Virus record (IMG/VR): IMGVR_UViG_2585427657_000001
DNA length: 11,394 nt
Source: a virus
Taxonomy: Duplodnaviria; Heunggongvirae; Uroviricota; Caudoviricetes
Direction: 5' to 3' (one strand)
Below are positions 592 through 11,394 of this stretch, piece by piece (position 1 is the stretch's first letter; every line of letters starts with the position of its first letter). The notes beneath the pieces are model-generated. The model made no database searches. It saw only the letters and a program-made list of their open reading frames with translations, and was not told the origin of the DNA. The position numbers and the translations under genes were made by a program.

Positions 592-620
592 ATAATTCCA
601 TTTCAAATCATCAATATAAA

Positions 621-720
621 AACGGTGTATACCGTTTAAAAACGGTGGGAACTGTTTTTACCCATATCCGATGATTTACCGTATTTGTCACCGGAATACA
701 CCGGATTCACAAGGTAAATC
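621..720. promoter_or_regulatory. Repeat-rich region upstream of alpA (candidate operator/promoter)
   Basis: AAACGGT-gtat-ACCGTTT hairpin-like inverted repeat (622-639); direct repeat AAAAACGGTG twice; tandem CACCGGA(A/T)T repeats (689-708); 8-bp inverted repeat GATTTACC (673-680) / GGTAAATC (713-720) ending 3 nt before the alpA start. Confidence 0.3.
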
Positions 721-723
721 ACG

Positions 724-930
724 ATGGAAGCAATCAGAAAAATTATCTTTCGCCAGGAAGTAAAAAAAATTATCCACATCAAGGCAGACAGCACGCTGCA
801 AAGCATGATCAACGCCGGAGAATTTCCGCAGGGTTTTCGCGTTGGTTTACGCCGTCGCGGATGGTATGAGGATGATGTGTTGGCCTGGCAGAAAGAACGC
901 GAACAGGAAGCACGCGGAACGGCTGCTTAA
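724..930 (+). CDS. alpA: AlpA-family DNA-binding regulator (prophage CP4-57 regulatory protein family; excisionase-like HTH)
   Basis: 68-aa product; segment ...STLQSMINAGEFPQGFRVGLRRRGWYEDDVLAWQ... fits the AlpA pattern (S-T-I-Y...G-x-F-P-x-P-x-K-L-G-x-R-x-V-x-W...E-I-x-x-W). Position right after int is typical of P4-like and PICI elements. Confidence 0.75.
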   Translation: MEAIRKIIFRQEVKKIIHIKADSTLQSMINAGEFPQGFRVGLRRRGWYEDDVLAWQKEREQEARGTAA

Positions 931-1114
931 CGGGTATCACAGATATGACAAACACGAAAAAAGCGGCCCCGATATGGAGCCGCCTTTCTGAACAATTAAC
1001 CCGCTGCGCCTTATGTGTATATGATCCCAAACATAAGCACGGGGATGATAGCCGCTATCAAAAAGTAACGGGTATTTTATCAAAAAAGTAACGGGCGGCT
1101 GGTGGGCAATGCAA

Positions 1115-1288
1115 TCAGTCTGGTTCAGTTCGTTGCCATACCTGCAATGAGCGCTTTTCCCTGTATTCTTTAAGGAATTGCTCAAGGGCAAAAGCACATG
1201 GCGCGAATCTTTCTGATTCATGCTCTATCTTTCTGCGCCGTCTTTTCCGTGCCGGTGATAATGTTTTGGTCAATTCTTTATCGGTCAT
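1115..1288 (-). CDS. Hypothetical small basic protein (57 aa, MTDKELTKTLSPARKRRRRK...)
   Basis: Minus-strand ORF about 55 bp downstream of the 1346-1651 regulator gene on the same strand, with an AGGA about 7 nt before the ATG at 1288. No homology recognised. Confidence 0.25.
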   Translation of the reverse strand: MTDKELTKTLSPARKRRRRKIEHESERFAPCAFALEQFLKEYREKRSLQVWQRTEPD

Positions 1289-1345
1289 TGTGTTGTCCTG
1301 CATAGCAATGCGCCGTAATACCTTACACCACGGCGCTGATGGTGA

Positions 1346-1651
1346 TTACTCTGGTTCTTTGGTCTTGCGGCGCTGGAGTTCTTCACGTGCGACAGTGACG
1401 AGCTGCCCGATCTCCTCGGCGGCTTTGATTCCGAGTTTTTCCACCTGCGCCAGTGCATCGTGCGAAGAAATCAGGGGGTTTTCTCCGCTTCCTTCTGCCT
1501 GGCGGCGGGCGATTTCACCGCGCATGGCGGTTACTATGAATCCGGCGTTGCTTTCACCGTCCAGTTTTACGGATTCCATGCCTTCAATAACATCATGCGG
1601 GATCCGAGCTGTCAGTGATTGTGATTTTGCGTTTTTTGAACCTGTAGCCAT
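1346..1651 (-). CDS. Small DNA-binding regulator, ribbon-helix-helix (Arc/MetJ-like) pattern at the N-terminus; candidate island repressor
   Basis: Start ATG at 1651 preceded by GAGAGGA (better than the upstream ATG at 1666). N-terminal SLTARIPHDVIEGMESVKLDGESNAGFIVTAMRGEIARR fits strand-helix-turn-helix of RHH proteins. Divergent from the small-ORF/primase operon. Confidence 0.55.
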   Translation of the reverse strand: MATGSKNAKSQSLTARIPHDVIEGMESVKLDGESNAGFIVTAMRGEIARRQAEGSGENPLISSHDALAQVEKLGIKAAEEIGQLVTVAREELQRRKTKEPE

Positions 1652-1672
1652 CTGTAATCCTCTCAATGAAAG

Positions 1673-1749
1673 TGTAAGACAATATACACATAAAAAGTCT
1701 TACATAAAAGCATTGACATGTAAGCCACCTATAAATAAAGTTACTTACA
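1673..1749. promoter_or_regulatory. Divergent promoter/operator region: two inverted-repeat pairs and a candidate sigma70 promoter
   Basis: Perfect 8-bp inverted repeat TGTAAGAC (1673-1680) / GTCTTACA (1697-1704) with 16-nt spacer; second pair TGTAAG (1719-1724) / CTTACA (1744-1749); TTGACA (1713-1718) -N17- TAAAGT (1736-1741) reading rightward and overlapping the second pair. Confidence 0.45.
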
Positions 1750-1847
1750 CCTTGTTAATGCAAGGTGCAGAAACGACGAAACCCCGCACTGTAGGAGCAG
1801 TAACGGGGCTTCTAACCACCAACGATAGCAAGATTATCGAGGCAGCT

Positions 1848-2048
1848 ATGAGAAATTATACCATACACCCGCAAGGGCGGGACTCGTACAACCTGAATAA
1901 ATACATCTGGCGTTTTATCGCCCTGAGCACGGCACAACCGCGCGTGATTACCATCGAGGCCACCAGCGAACAGGAAGCGCGTCAGCAATCTCCGGCTGGC
2001 TGCGTGATGGTATTTGCTGCCCGTATTCGTCAGGGGGTAGGCTTATGA
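1848..2048 (+). CDS. Hypothetical protein (66 aa), first gene of the small-ORF/primase operon
   Basis: ATG at 1848 with GAGG 6 nt upstream; stop overlaps the next start (ATGA at 2045-2048). The longer ORF 1266-2048 is antisense to the regulator gene in its 5' part and is not supported. Confidence 0.4.
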   Translation: MRNYTIHPQGRDSYNLNKYIWRFIALSTAQPRVITIEATSEQEARQQSPAGCVMVFAARIRQGVGL

Positions 2049-2275
2049 GCCAGGAAATCACACTACAACAGGCAGCAGAACGCGCCCACCAAATCGAAGT
2101 TATTTGCGCACTGGCAGAGGATTACCCTGGCATGATGACCGACAGCGAATCAGGGGCAATCATCGGCTTACTTAAACGCCTTAGCGGTGAGGTCTGCGTA
2201 TTCCTGAGCGATGAACAGGAAAGAAGAACGCTTATTTCTAACGAAAAAAAATGCGGAGGGGTACATGTGCAATAA
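2045..2275 (+). CDS. Hypothetical protein (76 aa)
   Basis: ATGA overlap with the upstream ORF; part of a chain of coupled small ORFs. No homology recognised. Confidence 0.5.
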   Translation: MSQEITLQQAAERAHQIEVICALAEDYPGMMTDSESGAIIGLLKRLSGEVCVFLSDEQERRTLISNEKKCGGVHVQ

Positions 2276-2486
2276 AACCACACCGGACGCAGCAGCCGCC
2301 GCGCTCACTACGCTGATGCACGCGCTTATCGATATTGAATGCACTGCAGAGCTTGCGCAGGGAGAAGAACAGAAAGACCGGACACAGTTCGCCCTGGAAT
2401 GTATCCGATACATCGCAACACGGTCGCTGAATGACGCTAAAAATATTCTTGTTGCTGATTGTGAAAATGGGGGGGGTTATGCGTGA
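2265..2486 (+). CDS. Hypothetical protein (73 aa from ATG 2265)
   Basis: GGAGGGG ending 3 nt before ATG 2265; overlaps neighbours by 11 and 8 nt. The ORF track starts at 2211, but 2265 has the better ribosome-binding site. Confidence 0.45.
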   Translation: MCNKTTPDAAAAALTTLMHALIDIECTAELAQGEEQKDRTQFALECIRYIATRSLNDAKNILVADCENGGGYA

Positions 2487-2700
2487 TGATCGTTTTAATT
2501 CCCTGAAACAGGAATTTTCCGGCGTTCCTGATGATGCGGCTGATGCGCTTTCGTCAATGCCAGAACTTATTAGAGCGGCTTTTTTCTTACTTTCCACGAG
2601 AGAATATAAATCAACGGGGCTTGATGTACTGAATATCGCCGCCGATTATGCTGATTTCGTGACAGAGGTTATTTTAAGAAAAACGACGGACGGGGATTAA
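2479..2700 (+). CDS. Hypothetical protein (73 aa from ATG 2479)
   Basis: G-rich Shine-Dalgarno before ATG 2479; overlaps the upstream ORF stop. The ORF track start at 2431 would overlap the previous gene extensively. Confidence 0.45.
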   Translation: MRDDRFNSLKQEFSGVPDDAADALSSMPELIRAAFFLLSTREYKSTGLDVLNIAADYADFVTEVILRKTTDGD

Positions 2701-2701
2701 T

Positions 2702-2935
2702 ATGCGTGATATTTACCACGAAACAATAGACCGCGCATTTCTTGCACTTTCTCACAGTGAAAACATGCTGGAAATATTGCGCATATGGCTTGAAACACTT
2801 GGCGACAATGAACGCGACAAACAAAAATCAAGAATTGCCACGGCATTAATAACGCTTCTTGAGCCTGTAATAATGGAACTGCAAGAAATAGATCTATTGC
2901 ACGATAGATATAAAGAACAGCACACCGGAGAATAA
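2702..2935 (+). CDS. Hypothetical protein (77 aa)
   Basis: Starts 2 nt after the upstream stop, with GGGGA upstream. No homology recognised. Confidence 0.5.
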   Translation: MRDIYHETIDRAFLALSHSENMLEILRIWLETLGDNERDKQKSRIATALITLLEPVIMELQEIDLLHDRYKEQHTGE

Positions 2936-2940
2936 AAATA

Positions 2941-3240
2941 ATGAAACTTAAATATTCTGGCTTAACTGCCAGTGGCAACACTCACCCTAAATTTACGCGC
3001 GGCGATATTTACCGCGACCAGTACGGCGGCACGGTAATGATTAAGGGCGTGGCGGGACGGTGCGTAACTTACCGCCGTGAAGGTTACGAATATGATTGCG
3101 TGATGCCTGTTTATCAGTTCCGGCGTGATTTTTCTCTGGTACAGACCGCGCCGCATAACGTGCCCACCAGCAACGCCAGGGCACGGGCAAACATCCAGAA
3201 GCTGAAAACCATGATTAACGGATTCAGGGGTAAAAAATGA
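2941..3240 (+). CDS. Hypothetical protein (99 aa), translationally coupled to the primase
   Basis: GGAGAA Shine-Dalgarno before ATG 2941; stop overlaps the primase start (ATGA at 3237-3240). Confidence 0.55.
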   Translation: MKLKYSGLTASGNTHPKFTRGDIYRDQYGGTVMIKGVAGRCVTYRREGYEYDCVMPVYQFRRDFSLVQTAPHNVPTSNARARANIQKLKTMINGFRGKK

Positions 3241-4991
3241 AACTGGCACCGAACGTAAAACAGCAGTCACGCGGCATAAAACACAAAGGAACAGAAGTCA
3301 TTATTTTTGCGGGTAGTGATGCCTGGGCACACGCGAAACAATGGCAGGAACATGATGCGCGTATGGCCGGAGATAATGAGCCTCCTGTGTGGCTTGGGGA
3401 GCAGCAGTTATCAGAACTGGATAAGCTGCAAATTGTGCCGGAAGGCAGAAAATCCGTGCGCATATTCAGGGCCGGATATCTTGCGCCAGTAATGATAAAG
3501 GCGATTGGTCAGAAGCTGGCGGCGGCAGGCGTACAGGATGCAAATTTTTACCCTGATGGTATGCACGGTCAGAAGGTGGAGAACTGGCGCGAATATCTGG
3601 CCCGTGAGCGCCAGAATCTTTCTGATGGTCTGGTCATTGAGCTTCCGGTAAAGCAAAAGGCGCAACTTTCGCAGATGGCGGACAGTGAGCGCGCGCAGCT
3701 GCTTGCCGATCGCTTTGATGGCGTTTGCGTACATCCTGAAAGTGAAATCGTTCACGTATGGCGCGGCGGGGTATGGTGTCCGGTCAGCACAATGGAACTT
3801 AGCCGCGAAATGGTGGCGATCTATTCAGAGCACAGGGCCACTTTCAGCAAGCGCGTAATCAATAACGCCGTGGAAGCGTTAAAAGTTATTGCCGAACCAA
3901 TGGGCGAGCCGTCCGGCGATTTGCTGCCGTTCGCCAATGGTGCGCTTGACCTGAAAACGGGGGAATTTTCCCCGCACACGCCGGAGAACTGGATCACCAC
4001 GCACAACGGCATTGAGTACACGCCACCAGCACCAGGGGAGAACATCCGCGATAACGCGCCAAACTTTCATAAATGGCTTGAGCACGCAGCCGGAAAAGAC
4101 CCGCGCAAGATGATGCGTATATGTGCCGCGCTGTACATGATTATGGCGAACCGGTACGACTGGCAGATGTTTATTGAGGCCACCGGAGACGGCGGGAGCG
4201 GTAAAAGTACATTCACACACATAGCCAGCCTTCTGGCAGGGAAACAAAACACGGTAAGCGCTGAAATGACATCGCTTGATGATGCTGGTGGGCGTGCGCA
4301 GGTTGTCGGGAGTCGTCTTATCGTCCTGGCAGACCAGCCGAAATATACAGGCGAAGGAACGGGCATCAAGAAAATCACGGGCGGCGACCCCGTGGAAATT
4401 AACCCGAAATATGAAAAGCGTTTTACGGCGGTAATCAGGGCGGTGGTGCTGGCAACCAATAACAATCCGATGATATTCACCGAACGGGCCGGAGGTGTGG
4501 CACGTCGTCGGGTGATATTCCGGTTCGATAACATCGTAAGCGAGGCAGAAAAAGACAGGGAGCTACCGGAAAAGATCGCGGCTGAAATCCCTGTCATTAT
4601 CCGCCGCTTGCTGGCGAACTTTGCCGACCCTGAAAAGGCACGGGCTTTACTCATTGAACAGCGTGACGGTGATGAAGCACTGGCAATAAAGCAACAGACG
4701 GATCCGGTTATTGAGTTTTGCCAGTTCCTGAATTTTCTGGAGGAAGCACGCGGCCTGATGATGGGCGGCGGTGGCGATTCAGTGAAGTACACGACCAGAA
4801 ACAGCCTTTACCGCGTCTATCTGGCGTTTATGGCGTACGCAGGCAGGAGCAAACCGCTAAACGTAAATGACTTTGGCAAGGCTATGAAGCCAGCCGCGAA
4901 AGTTTACGGACATGAATATATTACGCGGAAAGTTAAAGGAGTAACGCAGACTAACGCAATAACAACAGACGATTGCGACGCGTTTTTATAA
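3237..4991 (+). CDS. Replication initiator: primase/helicase of the phage-plasmid P4 (alpha) / PICI Pri-Rep type
   Basis: 584-aa protein with Walker A P-loop GDGGSGKST and a following hydrophobic-Asp segment (SRLIVLADQP) typical of D5/P4-alpha-like primase-helicases. Sits between alpA and an iteron array as in satellite replication modules. Confidence 0.8.
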   Translation: MKLAPNVKQQSRGIKHKGTEVIIFAGSDAWAHAKQWQEHDARMAGDNEPPVWLGEQQLSELDKLQIVPEGRKSVRIFRAGYLAPVMIKAIGQKLAAAGVQDANFYPDGMHGQKVENWREYLARERQNLSDGLVIELPVKQKAQLSQMADSERAQLLADRFDGVCVHPESEIVHVWRGGVWCPVSTMELSREMVAIYSEHRATFSKRVINNAVEALKVIAEPMGEPSGDLLPFANGALDLKTGEFSPHTPENWITTHNGIEYTPPAPGENIRDNAPNFHKWLEHAAGKDPRKMMRICAALYMIMANRYDWQMFIEATGDGGSGKSTFTHIASLLAGKQNTVSAEMTSLDDAGGRAQVVGSRLIVLADQPKYTGEGTGIKKITGGDPVEINPKYEKRFTAVIRAVVLATNNNPMIFTERAGGVARRRVIFRFDNIVSEAEKDRELPEKIAAEIPVIIRRLLANFADPEKARALLIEQRDGDEALAIKQQTDPVIEFCQFLNFLEEARGLMMGGGGDSVKYTTRNSLYRVYLAFMAYAGRSKPLNVNDFGKAMKPAAKVYGHEYITRKVKGVTQTNAITTDDCDAFL

Positions 4992-5004
4992 TTTGTTGCA
5001 ATGG

Positions 5005-5232
5005 CTGTCTACCCTGTCTACCTGAGTAAAGAAAAATACATTTAATTCAGTGCATTAAGTTAGGTAGATAGCCTTTTTTTACTGTCTACCCACTATCTAC
5101 CCTCTCTACCTGATTTTACCTGAATCAGACAGGGAGGTAGACACGGGGTAGATAGTGGATAAAAGCACTCTACCCCGCTGAAAGCCGCGCCATTACTGGC
5201 ATGAGGGCCACTAAGGTAGATAAGGTAGACAA
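5005..5232. repeat. Iteron array; candidate replication origin
   Basis: Eleven copies of a 9-mer with core TCTACC (CTGTCTACC, CTATCTACC, CTCTCTACC and complements GGTAGATAG, GGTAGACAC, GGTAGACAA) in both orientations at 5005-5013, 5014-5022, 5063-5071, 5082-5090, 5093-5101, 5102-5110, 5136-5144, 5147-5155, 5166-5174, 5215-5223, 5224-5232, with an AT-rich stretch at 5023-5060, directly downstream of the primase gene. Confidence 0.7.
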
Positions 5233-5279
5233 GGGGAGGCACAACTCAAAACTTTTTAAACGAGGGGGTAAAAATAAAT

Positions 5280-5558
5280 ATGCACACTTCAGGGAAATTT
5301 AATAAATCACTCAAAAAACGCAGAGACAGAACAGAACCGAAATATCGCGCGTTAGACATGACAGAGCACGCTTTAAAGGTGGCAATCAGAACGATAGACC
5401 GACACGTAGGGGAAGGATACGCGAAGGAACATCCCGACCTGATAAGCGCATTCATGACCACAGCAGCGGCAAACTTTGCCACGCTGACAGAACGGGAGAT
5501 TGCCGAAGCGGAACAGGTAACAACCATCAACGTTAAAACCGGAGAGGTGGAATCATGA
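5280..5558 (+). CDS. Hypothetical protein (92 aa)
   Basis: Strong Shine-Dalgarno GAGGGGG before ATG 5280; stop overlaps the next start (ATGA at 5555-5558). No homology recognised. Confidence 0.55.
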   Translation: MHTSGKFNKSLKKRRDRTEPKYRALDMTEHALKVAIRTIDRHVGEGYAKEHPDLISAFMTTAAANFATLTEREIAEAEQVTTINVKTGEVES

Positions 5559-5997
5559 CAGCACAGATAGCCGCTTACGGGCGGCTGGTGGACGACCCGC
5601 AGGTAAAACAGACCAGCAAGGGCACACCGATGACGCTGGCGCGTATGGCGGTCCCCCTTCCGTGCAGCCAGGCAGATGACGGAACGGCGACGATGTGGTT
5701 ATCCGTCCTGGCATTTGGCAGACAGGCCGAAGCACTGGAAAGGCACCGCAAGGGTGAACTCCTGAGCGTGGCGGGCATTTGGTAAGCAGGCCGGGTAACA
5801 TGCAGATCAGCCAGTGGACTGGGCAGAACGGAGAAACGCGGCAGGGCTGGCAGGTTATCGCAGACAGTGTAATCAGTGCGCGAACGGCGCGACTGGGCGG
5901 CAAAAAAGGTCAACAGGGCCAGGCTACTGACGCGCTGAACAGGGCAAAACAACAGGCGGGGAATGATGATCCGTACGGGGATAACATACCGTTTTAA
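5555..5997 (+). pseudogene. ssb: Single-stranded DNA-binding protein (SSB)-like gene interrupted by a frameshift (frame change near 5777-5782)
   Basis: N-terminal ORF (5555-5785) ...TMWLSVLAFGRQAEALERHRKGELLSVAG resembles the SSB OB-fold (E. coli ...[28 protein letters not shown]). The downstream frame (ATG 5800 to 5997) continues with MQISQWTGQNGE... and ends DDPYGDNIPF, like the SSB acidic C-terminal tip (DDDIPF). Adding one T to the TTT run at 5778-5780 restores a continuous reading frame. Confidence 0.5.
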
Positions 5998-6436: not shown

Positions 6437-6643
6437 ATGGCTGAAGAGAAAAAAGGCGGTGTTTCGGTGTACATAAGCCCCGACATCGTGAAGGCGCTCA
6501 AGGAACGCCACCAGCAGAACGTAAAAGCAGGCATTGCGGCAGGACTTGATCCGCTGGCGATGGTTGAGCCGTCAACAGGCTGGCAGGTACGCTCCTATTT
6601 ACGCGCGGCGCTGGGCATAAATCAGACTCATGGGGGTGAATAA
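6437..6643 (+). CDS. Hypothetical protein (68 aa), translationally coupled to the major capsid gene
   Basis: Good Shine-Dalgarno; TAATG stop/start overlap with the capsid gene at 6641-6645. N-terminal VSVYISPDIVKALKERH could be a ribbon-helix-helix motif (weak). Confidence 0.5.
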   Translation: MAEEKKGGVSVYISPDIVKALKERHQQNVKAGIAAGLDPLAMVEPSTGWQVRSYLRAALGINQTHGGE

Positions 6644-7698
6644 TGGCAGTCAAAGCAATGGCACTTAACACACACCAGCTTTTCGCGTACCTGAATCGCG
6701 AGGATATTGCGGAATTTAAATTTAGTCCGCTGTTTACCGCGCTGTTTTTCCCGAACGTGGCGACATTCAACACGCAAAACATCATGCTGGATACCCTGGA
6801 CATTGAAGAAGTCACCATGTCGGCGTTTTGTTCGCCTATGGTGGGTAGCCAGGTTCAGCGCGATAAAGGGTACGAAACCAGCACGATTAAACCTGGCTAC
6901 ATGAAGCCAAAGCACGAAATCGATCCAACGAAAACCATCATGCGCATGGCTGGAGAAGATCCGGCACAGCTTAACGACCCTACCTATCGCCGTATGCGCC
7001 TGATTACTGGCAATATGCGCCGCCAGATAAACGCCATAAAAGCGCGCGTGGAATGGCTGGCGGTAAATGCGGTAACGACCGGAAAAAACATCATTGAGGG
7101 CGAAGGCATAGAGCGCTATGAAATCGACTGGAAGATACCGGAAAAAAACATCATAGAGCAGGCCGACGGGAAAAAATGGTCAGAGCAGGACAAAGAAACC
7201 CACGATCCAATCTATGATATCGAACTATACGCCGATCAGGCTGGTTGCCCCGCAAACGTCATGATTATGGGCGTTGAGGTATGGCGAACGTTACGCAGCT
7301 TTAAAAAATTCCGTGAGCTGTACGATCTTTCCCGTGGTTCAGAGTCCGCCGCAGAGCTGGCCTGTAAAAACCTGGGCGAAGTGGTGAGCTTTAAAGGCTA
7401 TCTGGGCGATATTGCCCTTATCGTCTATTCCGGCAAATACACTGACAGCGACGGCACAGAAAAATATTTCCTTGATCCTGATTTGCTGGTCCTGGGCAAC
7501 ACCAACAACAAAGGGCTGGTGGCCTATGGTGCGATTATGGATCAGGAAGCGGTAAGAACAGGCGCAACGCAAAACATGTACTACCCGAAAAACTGGATTG
7601 AGGACGGCGATCCGGCGATTGAGTACGTGCAGACGCACAGCGCACCGCAGCCGGTTCCGGCAGATATTCGCAAATTTGTTACCGTCAAAATTGCTTAA
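6643..7698 (+). CDS. Major capsid protein, phage lambda gpE family
   Basis: 351 aa; multiple blocks match lambda gpE as recalled: FKFSPLFTALFF (lambda FKFDPLFLRLFF), KPGYMKPKHEIDP (TPGYVKPKHEVNP), DPTYRRMRLITGNMR (DPAYRRRRIIMQNMR), WSEQDKETHDPIYDIELYA (WSKRDKSTYDPTDDIEAYA), LGDIALIVYSGKY (YGDVAIVVYSGQY), YYPKNWIEDGDPA (RYPKNWVTTGDPA), C-terminal FVTVKIA (FVSVQLA). Confidence 0.9.
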   Translation: MAVKAMALNTHQLFAYLNREDIAEFKFSPLFTALFFPNVATFNTQNIMLDTLDIEEVTMSAFCSPMVGSQVQRDKGYETSTIKPGYMKPKHEIDPTKTIMRMAGEDPAQLNDPTYRRMRLITGNMRRQINAIKARVEWLAVNAVTTGKNIIEGEGIERYEIDWKIPEKNIIEQADGKKWSEQDKETHDPIYDIELYADQAGCPANVMIMGVEVWRTLRSFKKFRELYDLSRGSESAAELACKNLGEVVSFKGYLGDIALIVYSGKYTDSDGTEKYFLDPDLLVLGNTNNKGLVAYGAIMDQEAVRTGATQNMYYPKNWIEDGDPAIEYVQTHSAPQPVPADIRKFVTVKIA

Positions 7699-7709
7699 CG
7701 GGGGATTCT

Positions 7710-8045
7710 ATGGACACTCCATACATTGAGTTATTTGCAGGCAGTCAGCAGGTATCCACGACGCTGGTACATTTTGCCGCTGATGCTGGCGTTATTCAGG
7801 AATTTACCCCGCTGATGCTGGCGGACAATGGCGAGTTTAAGCCGTGGGATGGTCAGGAATCTGGCAAGGCTGTTTATCTGACTTCGTACCTCGTGGACAC
7901 GTCAAAGCAGAAATCAGCACAGTGTTACAAGACGGGGATATTCAATATTGCCGCCGTTAACTGGCCTGAGAGCGTCGACACCGATGCGAAAAAATGCGCC
8001 GCCTTTGCGGGTTCTGGCGTATCCGTTCAGCCGCTGGCCCGATAA
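7710..8045 (+). CDS. Head decoration protein, phage lambda gpD family
   Basis: 111 aa; TPLMLADNGEFKPWDG (lambda TPLMLDTSSRKLVAWDG), CYKTGIF...NWPES (FYKSGTF...LWPEA), KKCAAFAGSGVSV (KKRTAFAGTAISI). Size matches gpD (110 aa). Confidence 0.8.
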   Translation: MDTPYIELFAGSQQVSTTLVHFAADAGVIQEFTPLMLADNGEFKPWDGQESGKAVYLTSYLVDTSKQKSAQCYKTGIFNIAAVNWPESVDTDAKKCAAFAGSGVSVQPLAR

Positions 8046-8057
8046 GCAGGGGGAACG

Positions 8058-8471
8058 ATGGCAACGAATGAAAGCATCATGGCGCTACCGCTGGCGAGTA
8101 AATTTAAAGCCGAAGCGCGGGCAATGGCTGACAGAGGTTTATCAACCTACGAGGCCGTATATCAACTCAACAAACTGGAAGAGCAGGACAAGCCGCGCGC
8201 TGATGCGATTATGGCGCTTCATGAGCATAAAGACTATCAGCCGCTGTTGCGTGCAATGGCAAACGTGCCTTGTATCGATGTTGATACGGCTAAAAACATC
8301 CTGAACATGACCATAGAGCAGGAACGCCCGAAGGTTGCACCAGAGCTTACCGCAGCCTTTGAAAACTTTATGGACATGCACAGCCCACAAACCGTATCAG
8401 CTGGCATGGCATACGATGGCAGAAACCCAGGCGATGACGGCGACATCGATCGCATACTGAAAACCATCTGA
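8058..8471 (+). CDS. Hypothetical protein (137 aa), last gene of the capsid operon, directly upstream of cos
   Basis: ORF with AGGGGGA upstream, followed by a terminator at 8478-8500. No motif recognised; position suggests a packaging or morphogenesis accessory role. Confidence 0.55.
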   Translation: MATNESIMALPLASKFKAEARAMADRGLSTYEAVYQLNKLEEQDKPRADAIMALHEHKDYQPLLRAMANVPCIDVDTAKNILNMTIEQERPKVAPELTAAFENFMDMHSPQTVSAGMAYDGRNPGDDGDIDRILKTI

Positions 8472-8676: not shown

Positions 8677-9219
8677 ATGAAATCGCACCTGATGAACAAA
8701 AAAAACATGGCGAAAAGCTGCCGTGTAAGTGCGACAGCGTTCGACAAGTGGGGAGTGACTCCCGTTGAACGTAAAGGCCGTGAGGCGTTTTACGATGTTG
8801 CCAGCGTGATAGACAATAGGGTTAACAATGCAATTAGCCAGCTTACAAACGACAAAGGCGATATTGATGATGATGAACTCTTACGAGTCAGGATCAGATT
8901 ACTGACAGCACAGGCGGAGGCGCAGGAACTTAAAAACGAGCGCGATCGCGGTGACGTGATTGATACTGAGTTTTGCCTGTACGCGCTTTCAAAGCTGGCG
9001 AGTCAGATTTCATCAATCATGGACAGCCTCCCGCTTACTATGCAAAGGAGCTTCCCACAGATTACCCCCGCCATGCTGGATAGGCTTAAAAGGGAAGTGG
9101 TTAAAGCCTGTAATGCCAGTGCCAGAGTTGCCGACAACCTCCCACAGATACTGGCTGATTACTTGAAAGAAACAACCGGAAACGTACCGGAAAAGTTGCT
9201 ACAGAAGAAAGGCGAGTAA
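8677..9219 (+). CDS. Small terminase subunit, lambda Nu1 family (start may be ATG 8692, giving MNKK...)
   Basis: LTAQAEAQELKNERDRGDVIDTEFCLYALSKLASQISSIMDSLPLTMQRSFPQI matches lambda Nu1 LTRAQADAQELKNARDSAEVVETAFCTFVLSRIAGEIASILDGLPLSVQRRFPEL; C-terminal LADYLKETTG matches LLSEYIEQSG; N-terminal MNKK matches Nu1 MEVNKK. Gene sits immediately downstream of a cosN, as in lambda. Confidence 0.85.
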   Translation: MKSHLMNKKNMAKSCRVSATAFDKWGVTPVERKGREAFYDVASVIDNRVNNAISQLTNDKGDIDDDELLRVRIRLLTAQAEAQELKNERDRGDVIDTEFCLYALSKLASQISSIMDSLPLTMQRSFPQITPAMLDRLKREVVKACNASARVADNLPQILADYLKETTGNVPEKLLQKKGE

Positions 9220-9758: not shown

Positions 9759-9927
9759 TGGTTGATATTTTCGAAATTCGCCAGCGGCGAACATCGGGGA
9801 AACCAGCCTAACCCGTTGATATTTTCGGGAACCTCAAATTGAGGAGGTCGGAAACATAACCCGTCATATTCTGGATGCTGATAATTACCACGCAGCCCAT
9901 TAAGGCCTAACCCGTTGATTCTTTCGG
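9759..9927 (+). repeat. Direct repeats of a roughly 20-bp motif (CCTAACCCGTTGAT(A/T)(T/C)TTTCGG) at the island/chromosome junction; candidate attR and integrase-binding repeats
   Basis: Copies at 9760-9773 (partial), 9807-9828, 9856-9874 (degenerate) and 9906-9927; the 3' part of the motif (TCTTTCGG) recurs inside the phoQ 3' end at 9941-9948. Confidence 0.5.
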
Positions 9928-9933
9928 ACATAT

Positions 9934-11394
9934 TTATTCATCTTTCGGTGCAGAATGCTGGCGACCAAAAATCACTTCCATCCGCGCACCGCCCAGCATG
10001 CTCTCTCCGGCGACGATTTTACCCTCATATTGCTCGGTGATTTCGCGGGCTACCGCCAGCCCCACACCTTGCCCAGGGCGTAAAGTATCAACCCGTTGAC
10101 CACGGTCGAAAATGACCTCTCGCTTGCTTAATGGAATACCGGGGCCATCATCCTCGACCACAATATAGAGATGCTCGTCGGTTTGCCTTGCAGAAATTTC
10201 GACAAATTCGAGGCAATATTTACAGGCATTATCCAGCACATTACCCATCACCTCGACAAAATCGTTCTGCTCACCAACAAAGCTGATCTCTGGCGAAATA
10301 TCGAGAGAGATATTGACCCCTTTGCGTTGATACACTTTGTTCAGCGCCGAGGTGAGATTGTCCAACAGTGGGGCGACCGGATGCAGCTCGCGGCTAAGCA
10401 ATGTCCCGCCGCGCATACTGGCACGATGCAGGTAGTAGCCAATTTGCTGTGAAATGCGGCTGATTTGCTCCAGCATTACCGGCTCAGCATCACTGACGCT
10501 CATCTTCTCACTACGCAGAGAACGCAGCGTACTTTGCAGCACCGCCAGTGGCGTTTTCAGACTATGGGTCAGGTCGGTGAGCGTCGTACGATATTTGTCG
10601 TAACGTTCGCGTTCACTTTTTAACAGTCGGTTCAGGTTTCGTACCAGACTGGTCAGTTCTCGCGTTGTGGCTGGATTGAGCAATTCACGGTTATGTTCTT
10701 CCAGTTCGCGGACTTCTTTTGCCAGGGCTTCGATGGGGCGTAAACTCCACCAGGCGGCGACCCACAGCAGCGGGATCACTAACAGCAGATTGGCTGAGAG
10801 CACATAGATAAACCAGCTCCAGACCATATAGGAACTTTTTAGCTCCACCGGAATGGTATCCACCACCACAATGGTTAACTTTGGCATCCGCGATGTTGCC
10901 GGGTAGACGTTTACCGCCACCGAGTGGGTCATCTCCGCGTCGTCATCATCTTCCCGCACTTCCTGCAACTGTTGCTGTATCGAATGATCTCCACTCAGCA
11001 AGAGGCTGGTATCGTTAACATCCGCTTCAATTTCATGAAAACCATTCGATTTCAGCCAGTCAGGCTGGATCATCTTCATCAGCCAGGGCACGTCACGTTG
11101 CGCCCATAAAAGCTGCCCGTTCTCATCATAAATTAGTGTCATCGTGGGGCTTTGCTTGTCGATATTTTCGGGTAACTCGACATGCAACTTATTGTTTTCC
11201 CACTTCGCAAGGGTATAGAACAGATTGCTCTCGCCACGTAACAGCCGAAACGTGGTTTTATCGAAACTGACGCTATAACCGATCAGCGCAACCATTCCGT
11301 AGGCAAGCGAAAGCACCAATACTACTGCTGCCGTTGCTAACAGAAAACGTACCCGCAGCGAGAGCGGGAAAAAAAGATGCAGTAATTTTTTCAT
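9934..11394 (-). CDS. phoQ: Sensor histidine kinase PhoQ (PhoP/PhoQ two-component system), complete
   Basis: 486-aa product recognised as E. coli-type PhoQ ([68 protein letters not shown]...; periplasmic acidic patch EDDDDAEM; H-box [14 protein letters not shown]; G-box DDGPGI). Start codon is the last three bases of the window; phoP would lie beyond the right edge. Confidence 0.97.

Follow-up and report, generated by a model that had tools for sequence, protein, structure and literature searches.

The 11,394-nucleotide (nt) stretch of viral DNA analyzed here over its whole length (IMG/VR record IMGVR_UViG_2585427657_000001; the window) carries a block of six small open reading frames (ORFs) immediately upstream of a primase gene, in what we assign to a phage-inducible chromosomal island (PICI). 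All six are on the plus strand: ORF1 (1848-2048; 66 aa), ORF2 (2045-2275; 76 aa), ORF3 (2265-2486; 73 aa), ORF4 (2479-2700; 73 aa), ORF5 (2702-2935; 77 aa) and ORF6 (2941-3240; 99 aa). They are tightly packed, with ORF1 and ORF2 sharing an ATGA at 2045-2048, ORF2 and ORF3 overlapping by 11 nt (2265-2275) and ORF3 and ORF4 by 8 nt (2479-2486), and with gaps of 1 nt between ORF4 and ORF5 and 5 nt between ORF5 and ORF6; ORF6 is joined to the primase gene by a further ATGA at 3237-3240. An earlier annotation made from the letters alone (the sequence-only reading) had listed these ORFs and overlaps, all of which are present, and had proposed that the block feeds into the primase gene of a satellite, in agreement with the coupling at the last junction, the P4-type primase and the PICI identity of the element. 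A purine-rich Shine-Dalgarno sequence lies 5-10 nt upstream of each start codon, or about 11 nt upstream in the case of ORF6. ORF1 and ORF6 encode basic products (isoelectric point, pI, about 10; net charge +4 and +12, respectively) and ORF2-5 encode acidic ones (pI 4.4-5.0; net charge -5 to -7).

The same six coding sequences are annotated by RefSeq/PGAP in the E. coli strains Nissle 1917 and CFT073, and every one of the ORFs matches a PHROG family (E = 2e-12 to 1e-42). In a comparison of six islands (the window and those of O157 strain 7409, C3, STEC299, APEC17 and 00-3076), reading frames and lengths are preserved down to 41-56% amino acid identity, which is the outcome of a conservation check that the sequence-only reading had proposed, and dN/dS (Nei-Gojobori) is mostly 0.2-0.5 in the well-diverged pairs of ORFs 1, 3, 4, 5 and 6. 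Opposite-strand coding was rejected, since the four longest minus-strand ORFs over the block (81-119 aa) have no PHROG family match. A consensus scan of the plus strand from 1848 to 3240 found no terminator-like site, and just one promoter-like site inside the block, a weak one at 2846-2874. We conclude that the six ORFs are genuine, co-transcribed and translationally coupled genes that form the promoter-proximal part of an early regulation-replication operon, and our confidence in the gene identities and operon structure stands well above that placed in the functional model set out below.

By gene order and content the window is assigned to the EcCICFT073 family of PICIs. The integrase, alpA and primase-helicase (pri-rep) genes lie in one orientation with the replication origin (ori) directly after pri-rep, as in the published PICI layout, and the small island carries capsid-E, head-decoration and TerS-like (Rpp-type) genes, with no tail or lysis genes in the part within the window. 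It extends from before position 1 to ~9928, and phoQ forms the right flank. The hallmarks of P4-like satellites were not found: in the window proteins that were scanned, Pfam and PHROG gave no match to Psu, Sid, Delta or PF25738, there is no C4 RNA, and the packaging module is of the capsid-E/decoration/TerS type. EcCICFT073 (Fillol-Salom 2018, 2019), which sits between roxA (ycfD) and phoQ and encodes the putative capsid protein c1499 and head decoration protein c1500, has the same gene order and the same chromosomal site by phoQ, and shares with the window the capsid-E/head-decoration module and the iteron-containing ori after pri. Helper-driven, AlpA-dependent induction, replication and high-frequency transfer have been shown for EcCICFT073 itself (PMC6092414). 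The common layout, together with the identities to the fetched CFT073 island, therefore places the block in the early operon of a known satellite; on these comparisons the locus nearly duplicates the early operon of the Gram-negative PICI that has been studied most, and is already known and annotated in RefSeq. The Nissle 1917 island is 99.5% identical to the window, and 69 complete E. coli genomes contain the locus at >=80% coverage.

The sequence-only reading saw no recognizable motif in any of the six products and regarded all of them as of unknown function. This needs to be revised for the two end genes, of which ORF1 is Icd-like (NF033153) and ORF6 belongs to the DUF4222/RgdR family, for which there are published genetics. 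ORF1 residues 19-62 match NF033153 with a score of 69.9 bits (E = 1.4e-19), well over the curated cut-off of 25 that defines the Icd-like family. The P4 'cI ORF137' matches the same model with residues 84-131 (E = 7.7e-21; 73.9 bits). This P4 protein, the old 'cI gene product (AA 1-137)', carries the annotation of a transcriptional repressor and has an Ash family region at residues 21-84; we take its N-terminal Ash region to overlie the CI RNA gene, and its C-terminal residues 84-131 to represent the kil/eta region, whose genes are translated first in the P4 left operon. The PHROG family of ORF1 is labelled 'transcriptional repressor', a label that probably derives from the phage P4 annotation; Pfam Phage_ASH is absent from the extended ORF1 reading frame. 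ORF1 is identical to its CFT073 counterpart at 62 of 66 residues; its dN/dS values are 0.2-0.6. Expression of P1 Icd or P4 kil leads to inhibition of cell division or toxicity, and ORF1 may act similarly, by analogy with P1 Icd, P4 Kil and the ECOR61 locus discussed below.

ORF6 matches the full length of the DUF4222 model (PF13973, model positions 1-53) at residues 16-68, with 82.1 bits (E = 2.1e-23) against a gathering cut-off of 27. The RgdR family consists of basic proteins of ~99 aa with an RGD motif, a lysine at position 35 and high identity to ECs1581 or C1493, and ORF6 has all of these features: it is 99 aa long with a pI of 10.2, has RGD at residues 20-22 (R20-G21-D22) and K35 (the roles of these residues being taken from PMC3378721), and is identical to CFT073 C1493 at 90 of 99 positions (91%) and to O157 Sakai ECs1581 (RgdR) at 78%, with A10 and R45 in place of D10 and H45. 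RgdR (ECs1581 in OI-51 of O157:H7 Sakai/EDL933; C1493 in CFT073) corresponds to ORF6 in size, pI, DUF4222 domain, RGD motif, K35 and position; the Sakai gene is in a capsid-forming PICI (cf-PICI; Sp7 = EcCIEDL933) that has a different primase from that of the window. ECs1581 of OI-51/Sp7 (99 aa, pI 10.09, RGD at 20-22) activates LEE1 and type III secretion, represses motility, and has weak, non-specific DNA-binding activity (Flockhart et al. 2012, PMC3378721). In function C1493 and ECs1581 are interchangeable, and C1493 represses motility in uropathogenic E. coli; deletion of either rgdR or OI-51 gives less type III secretion, adherence and sheep colonisation (PMC3378721). The ORF6 allele might have the same effects on type III secretion and motility, which have been shown for its relatives ECs1581 and C1493. 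A search of the genome contigs for loci related to ORF6 returned only 2.

An AlphaFold2 model of ORF6 has a core with a predicted local distance difference test score (pLDDT) of about 92 and contains an SH3/Tudor/KOW-like barrel followed by a basic C-terminal helix; its matches among viral models are limited to DUF1653 proteins and to small phage proteins that are uncharacterised. RNA polymerase is the docking partner of several bacterial proteins with a fold of this class. Hypothetically, RgdR could act via RNA polymerase, in keeping with the 'co-factor' proposal of Flockhart et al., with the caveats that such folds are widespread and the match scores modest.

The four middle genes are uncharacterised accessory genes. 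Searches for homologous proteins returned nearly exclusively near-identical, unnamed E. coli proteins. ORF2, ORF3 and ORF4 are 100% identical to their counterparts in the prototype CFT073 island, and ORF2 is 100% identical in CFT073, Nissle and strain C3. ORF2 (pI 4.8; phrog_1478, E = 2.9e-28) has a conserved 'YP' motif in mid-sequence, and outside the island set has homologues of the same length at 41-53% identity, including ECs1579 of the O157 Sakai Sp7 (53%), STM0898.6n of Salmonella phage Fels-1 (41%) and a Klebsiella prophage protein; a match to a hydrophobin in the PDB (E = 0.019) was treated as noise. ORF5 (pI 5.0; phrog_2196, E = 8e-42) is identical to the CFT073 protein at 69 of 77 residues, and its family is narrow, with 9 clusters among 1.84 billion representative proteins, so that remote homologues are uninformative. 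Distant members are ECs1580 (Sakai Sp7), an ORF of the Klebsiella cf-PICI vB_KppS-Ant and Fels-1 STM0898.5n. In Sakai Sp7 the ORF2-like and ORF5-like genes are neighbours, as they are in the Fels-1 early-left operon, where they overlap by an ATGA.

A more complex relationship is seen with ORF3 and ORF4. ORF3 (pI 4.5) matches phrog_5146 and the N-terminal half of phrog_2512, and ORF4 (pI 4.4) matches phrog_24341 and the C-terminal half of phrog_2512 (E about 3e-37). Of the four comparisons of ORF3 with the window, three give a dN/dS of about 0.4-0.5 and one gives 0.80; for ORF4 the value is 0.2-0.3 in diverged pairs. A G8 tract at 2469-2476 (plus strand) lies at the junction of the two genes. 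In the window, Nissle, CFT073, and islands L003, L006 and L007, this tract gives two ORFs ('...ENGGGYA*' and 'MRDD...'), whereas in O157 strain 7409 a G7 tract (L002, 7218-7224) gives a 154-aa fusion of ORF3 and ORF4 ('...ENGGVMRDD...'). Fused forms are also present in hundreds of E. coli protein clusters, and the clusters of both fusion types are large; one of them (P0023) has one glycine more, ENGGGVMRDD, consistent with a G10 tract. The tract at 2469-2476 is thus a possible phase-variable or frameshift-prone site. The idea that ORF2-5 are paralogous helical hairpins was rejected, with hhalign probabilities of <=1.5%.

Comparison of the six islands reveals a common architecture. The Icd-like gene is first and the rgdR gene last in six out of six, and the one to five small genes between them come from a pool made up of ORF2, ORF3, ORF4, ORF5 and a beta-rich 'family F'. 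What follows rgdR is a gene for a primase of the P4 type, a helicase of the RepA family or a primase-like protein. Islands with the primase carry ORF2-5, and those with the RepA helicase carry either ORF3-5 or only the unrelated beta-rich family F gene; all of ORF2-5 are absent from island L008. A similar pattern emerges from their prevalence, measured as genomes with a blastn match among 5,426 complete genomes: the end genes occur in about one E. coli genome in four (ORF1, 1411; ORF6, 1457), and each of the middle genes in roughly 5-15% (ORF2, 260; ORF3, 828; ORF4, 804; ORF5, 813). ORF2-5 are a variable, swappable cassette between two conserved end genes. The junctions between modules are stereotyped, with '...HA*' over 'ATGCGTGA' (MRD...) and '...HVQ*' over 'ATGTGCAATAA' (MCN...), and would fit recombinational shuffling at boundary sequences. 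Because ORF2-5 are independent of the initiator type and are all lacking in L008, a dedicated function in replication is unlikely for them; that they might prove to be routine replication accessory proteins was the outcome the sequence-only reading had named as counting against its proposal, and their variation independently of replication-initiator type speaks otherwise. We note that the roxA/phoQ site is occupied by a cf-PICI of the EcCIEDL933 type in Sakai (L013, Sp7) and by an EcCICFT073-type PICI in O157 strain 7409 (L002), and both islands have a block running from an Icd-like gene to rgdR. PerC/PchE regulators are also carried by sister islands.

Upstream of the block is a promoter/operator region at 1672-1751 (plus strand). 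The best-scoring site in the scanned region 600-5400 is a sigma-70-like promoter at 1713-1741, with a -35 TTGACA (1713-1718) and a -10 TAAAGT (1736-1741) separated by 17 nt and matching at 10 of 12 positions; the -35 is conserved in sister islands. Operon transcription most probably starts here and passes through a structured leader. Repeats lie around the promoter at 1672-1680 (GTGTAAGAC), 1697-1704 (GTCTTACA), 1719-1726 (TGTAAGCC) and 1744-1750 (CTTACAC), and every island has its own 9-11-bp motif in three or four copies at the same positions around the promoter: GTGTAAGAC in the window and also in L008, GTGGGCCACAC in CFT073, GTGTTCAACAC in C3, CTGGAATCCAG in APEC17, TGTGATTCA in STEC299 and GGTAATTACC in O157 strain 7409. 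The divergent gene at 1346-1651 (minus strand) encodes a YlcI/YnfO-family protein (NF041551, E = 2.2e-20; phrog_6522), and the repeat motif tracks the N-terminal 'KSQxxxARxPH' segment of this protein and is independent of the AlpA allele, which is nearly alike in CFT073, C3 and L008. YlcI/YnfO is a candidate regulator that would bind the repeats and repress the operon. In O157 strain 7409 an unannotated 44-aa ORF (L002 6300-6434, minus strand; MRLPEDFRAQLEEAAKADGDTSLATWIKRVLRKELQQRGIEPKG) takes the place of YlcI/YnfO, divergent from the Icd-like operon, and adjoins the GGTAATTACC repeats.

The 5' leader (1748-1847, plus strand) has a predicted fold of -32.9 kcal/mol (z = -3.73), composed of hairpin 1 (1748-1767), hairpin 2 (1782-1808), a conserved tail CTTCTAACCACCAACGA (1809-1825) and a hairpin 3 adjoining the Shine-Dalgarno sequence GAGG at 1839-1842. 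Across seven islands, hairpin 2 has both-sided changes at six of nine pairs with the pairing kept, and it is directly followed by a near-invariant (C/G)TCTAACCA(C/A)CAACG. Genes of the Icd type are expected to be the first ORF after a C4/CI-type antisense RNA, by which they are regulated in P1 and P4 and in some sister islands, and isrK-like and C4/CI-type RNAs are indeed found just upstream of the Icd-like gene in L008 (2761-2946), L006 (about 2700-2850) and P4 (L009, 8420-8705). They are absent from the window, CFT073 and O157 strain 7409. Immunity by C4/CI/IsrK antisense RNA upstream of ORF1 was rejected here, as Rfam gave no C4, isrK or c4-a1b1 match in the window at E up to 1, in a search that did recover C4 and isrK from P4 and L008. 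The PICI family has two leader types. The tail after hairpin 2 resembles the CCACCA end of the C4 match in L008; hairpin 2 itself is not a C4 RNA by Rfam.

In the PICI, this operon corresponds to the left operon of phage P4 (vis/alpA, [CI RNA], kil/eta, epsilon, orf151, orf106, alpha primase). Both have an AlpA/Vis-type regulator upstream, an NF033153 member as the first translated gene, and several small ORFs with 8-nt overlaps followed by a P4-family primase. In the window the regulator is an AlpA-like protein (724-930, plus strand; a helix-turn-helix regulator according to the Nissle annotation) that matches Pfam Phage_AlpA at E = 0.0035, under the gathering score, and P4 Vis/ORF88 with 31% identity (E = 2e-7). 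The operons differ in that P4 has a C4/CI antisense RNA and an isrK-like leader that the window lacks, none of the window ORFs is a homologue of epsilon (PF25738) or orf106 (DUF5375), and P4 has neither a significant DUF4222/RgdR match nor a YlcI/YnfO gene. P4 orf151 was considered as a DUF4222 relative, which is unsupported (pairwise E = 0.09; hidden Markov model E = 0.11 in a five-sequence database; no Pfam match). The analogy to P4 that the sequence-only reading drew from position can now be restated: it is strengthened by homology for ORF1, which shares NF033153 with the kil/eta part of P4, and it fails for epsilon.

Two further loci are informative. The P1 immI operon (c4 RNA, icd, ant1/2) has as its first ORF a member of the Icd family, to which the effector genes further downstream are coupled. 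The window resembles it in its first ORF, a likeness drawn through the family model and not to P1 Icd directly, and departs from it in having no c4 RNA and downstream genes that are unrelated to ant. The ECOR61 locus is comparable in gene layout: after an Icd-like gene come overlapping ORFs of ~60 aa and a gene for a DNA primase, six linked genes in all. Its Icd-like protein is longer (121 aa) and has an N-terminal extension. Suppressor insertions were recovered in the Icd-like gene and in two overlapping small ORFs of ECOR61, all six linked genes including the primase are needed for the cell death triggered by the phage accessory gene orf24, and removal of the Icd-like gene abolished cell death (Silas et al., bioRxiv 10.1101/2023.04.06.535777).

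A plausible scenario, and the one that we favor, is that the block is an AlpA-dependent early operon. In the integrated state its promoter would be held down by the divergent YlcI/YnfO-type protein bound at the island-specific repeats overlapping it, and a helper phage would switch on AlpA, leading to joint expression of the entire block and the primase. ORF1 would then arrest division or growth, with its translation sustaining downstream transcription as for P1 Icd and P4 Kil/Eta; RgdR would modulate transcription, possibly via RNA polymerase or non-specific nucleic-acid binding; ORF2-5 would be stoichiometric binders of helper-phage or host proteins, accessory and not core replication factors; and the primase would replicate the island. 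AlpA is the activator of the PICI cycle, and in EcCICFT073 helper-induced AlpA is required for induction, and AlpA over-expression activates a fusion to the third ORF and causes pri-dependent runaway replication that harms viability (PMC6092414). The six ORFs are presumably co-expressed with pri because pri is translationally coupled to them. Taken as a whole this model is probable, if by a limited degree, and the role given to ORF2-5 is more tentative, with a chance that falls somewhat short of even. The sequence-only reading had suggested helper manipulation or anti-phage activity for all six genes; for ORF2-5 this may be so, by analogy, and the one supporting precedent is the Icd-like/small-ORF/primase cell-death locus of ECOR61 (bioRxiv 10.1101/2023.04.06.535777).

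A number of observations weigh against this model. The RgdR phenotypes were seen at native level in uninduced O157 (PMC3378721), and therefore ORF6, at least, is expressed without helper induction; such helper-independent expression, together with the weak promoter-like site at 2846-2874, argues against tight repression of the whole block. There being no C4/CI RNA in the window, the coupling logic of P1 and P4 may not transfer. The covariation of the repeats with YlcI/YnfO rests on six or seven islands, and neither YlcI/YnfO nor the O157 44-aa ORF could be confirmed as having a ribbon-helix-helix fold (Pfam RHH_5, E = 0.15 at best). ORF2-5 have no Pfam, NCBIfam, PADLOC or significant PDB match, and sequence searches for relatives of solved structure with ORF1, ORF2, ORF5, ORF6, the ORF3-4 profile and YlcI/YnfO found nothing significant. 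The AlphaFold2 model of the 154-aa ORF3-4 fusion is all-helical and of low confidence (mean pLDDT 59), and a Dps/ferritin-like four-helix bundle was discarded, as Foldseek matches to the PDB were not significant (E = 0.07 or worse). No PADLOC-DB family was matched at E up to 0.1 by the six ORFs or four neighbouring proteins, and the published EcCICFT073 interference screen cloned only genes after ori, a set to which ORF1-6 do not belong.

Several alternatives can be considered. ORF2-5 may be an arms-race hot spot of satellite early operons, and YlcI/YnfO the master repressor of Gram-negative PICIs, the existence of which was called unclear in 2018. The acidic proteins would neutralise helper or host proteins, either in the manner of the anti-repressor P4 epsilon or as anti-defence factors; they would be shuffled among PICIs, cf-PICIs and temperate phages via the '...HA*/MRD' and '...HVQ*/MCN' junctions; and the slippery G7/G8 tract would toggle between separate and fused forms. 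We regard this joint reading as unlikely, at perhaps one chance in a handful. It is about equally improbable that the block and primase constitute an abortive-infection or superinfection-exclusion module in which a protein of an incoming phage is the trigger and the Icd-like protein and small ORFs kill or arrest the cell. The window has the same architecture as the ECOR61 locus, where orf24-triggered death requires six genes including the primase (bioRxiv 10.1101/2023.04.06.535777), and AlpA-driven runaway induction of EcCICFT073 lowers viability (PMC6092414). However, the ECOR61 small ORFs are likened to ORF2-5 by gene layout and not by sequence, the reconstituted ECOR61 effect was described as muted, and toxicity could be a by-product of satellite induction; a known anti-phage defence system was rejected given the lack of any PADLOC match.

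The distribution of the genes bears on two weaker proposals. If ORF2-5 and RgdR were accessory factors of the replication initiator, acting for example in ori remodelling or helicase loading, their location directly upstream of pri-rep and translational coupling to it, the constant placement of RgdR immediately before the initiator, and its weak and non-specific DNA binding would be accounted for. This is quite improbable given that ORF2-5 come and go regardless of initiator type, with L008 having none, that the ORF2-like and ORF5-like genes of Fels-1 are in its early-left operon far from its replication genes, and that RgdR is constant while the initiator family changes; a published rep-ori construct may also suggest that replication proceeds equally well without ORF2-6. 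Equally doubtful is the notion that the genes are lysogenic-conversion regulators serving the host (virulence or motility) from the integrated island with no part in the satellite cycle, for which the rgdR/OI-51 deletion phenotypes and C1493 motility repression (PMC3378721) and the PerC/PchE regulators of sister islands can be cited, but such data are for RgdR only, ORF2-5 have homologues in phage early operons, and RgdR is conserved in strains without the LEE at the same position before the replication gene in both PICIs and cf-PICIs, a distribution suggesting that its main role is in the cycle of the element itself. RgdR is the only tested product of this part of a PICI, and was tested in a virulence context.

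The locus is ordinary as found and is present also in the probiotic strain Nissle 1917. Its novelty is low, given that it belongs to a satellite family already characterised and carries RefSeq annotation. Its residual interest lies in four uncharacterised, fast-shuffling genes and in several regulatory and structural leads: the RgdR barrel of a fold also used by bacterial RNA-polymerase-binding modules, the ORF2 and ORF5 relatives that travel together in phages and satellites, the split-or-fused ORF3/ORF4 pair governed by a G-tract, and a candidate repressor-operator pair at the operon promoter.

The remainder of the window relates to EcCICFT073 and Nissle as follows. At the left end are the C-terminal 75 residues of the integrase (1-228) and the AlpA gene, and positions 1-1095 match the Nissle island at tRNA-Pro/yejM. 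The window AlpA is a different allele from that of CFT073, with 16 of 62 residues identical. The YlcI/YnfO protein is 101 aa in the window and 59 aa in EcCICFT073, and the operator repeats differ; there is no PerC gene in the window, unlike EcCICFT073; and the TerS-like protein (8677-9219) is 180 aa as compared with 144 aa. The right junction (9923-9934) adjoins phoQ as in EcCICFT073, but lacks ~380 bp that is present there in CFT073, and the exact window junction at phoQ was found in none of the complete E. coli genomes in the collection. The island thus looks mosaic.

Among the other genes, a 62-aa ORF (1115-1303, minus strand; phrog_21027, E = 1.6e-15) lies 3' of the YlcI/YnfO gene in the leftward operon; it is unannotated in Nissle, and the CFT073 region is 95% identical with an annotated 57-aa coding sequence, and it is probably a real gene. 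The primase-helicase (3237-4991, plus strand; 584 aa) is of the P4/D5 type (TIGR01613, E = 8.8e-32; D5_N, DUF5906 and Pox_D5) and is identical to the CFT073 protein at 582 of 584 residues. Directly 3' of it is the putative ori (5005-5236), with at least 12 iterons CT(G/A)TCTACC in both orientations; an Rfam match to mir-135 on both strands at 5078-5159 is an artefact of the ori palindrome. The lambda-E-like major capsid protein gene (6643-7698) and head-decoration gene (7710-8045) are followed by a gene for a 137-aa protein (8058-8471; phrog_1999) that is weakly like the C-terminal part of head-maturation proteases (phrog_53, E = 2.7e-9) and may be scaffold-like. The ssb gene (5555-5997) is present as two ORFs, split by a 20-bp insertion (5772-5791) relative to Nissle 1917. 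A second insertion relative to Nissle 1917, of 36 bp at 1061-1096, contains a duplicated AAAAAGTAACGGG.

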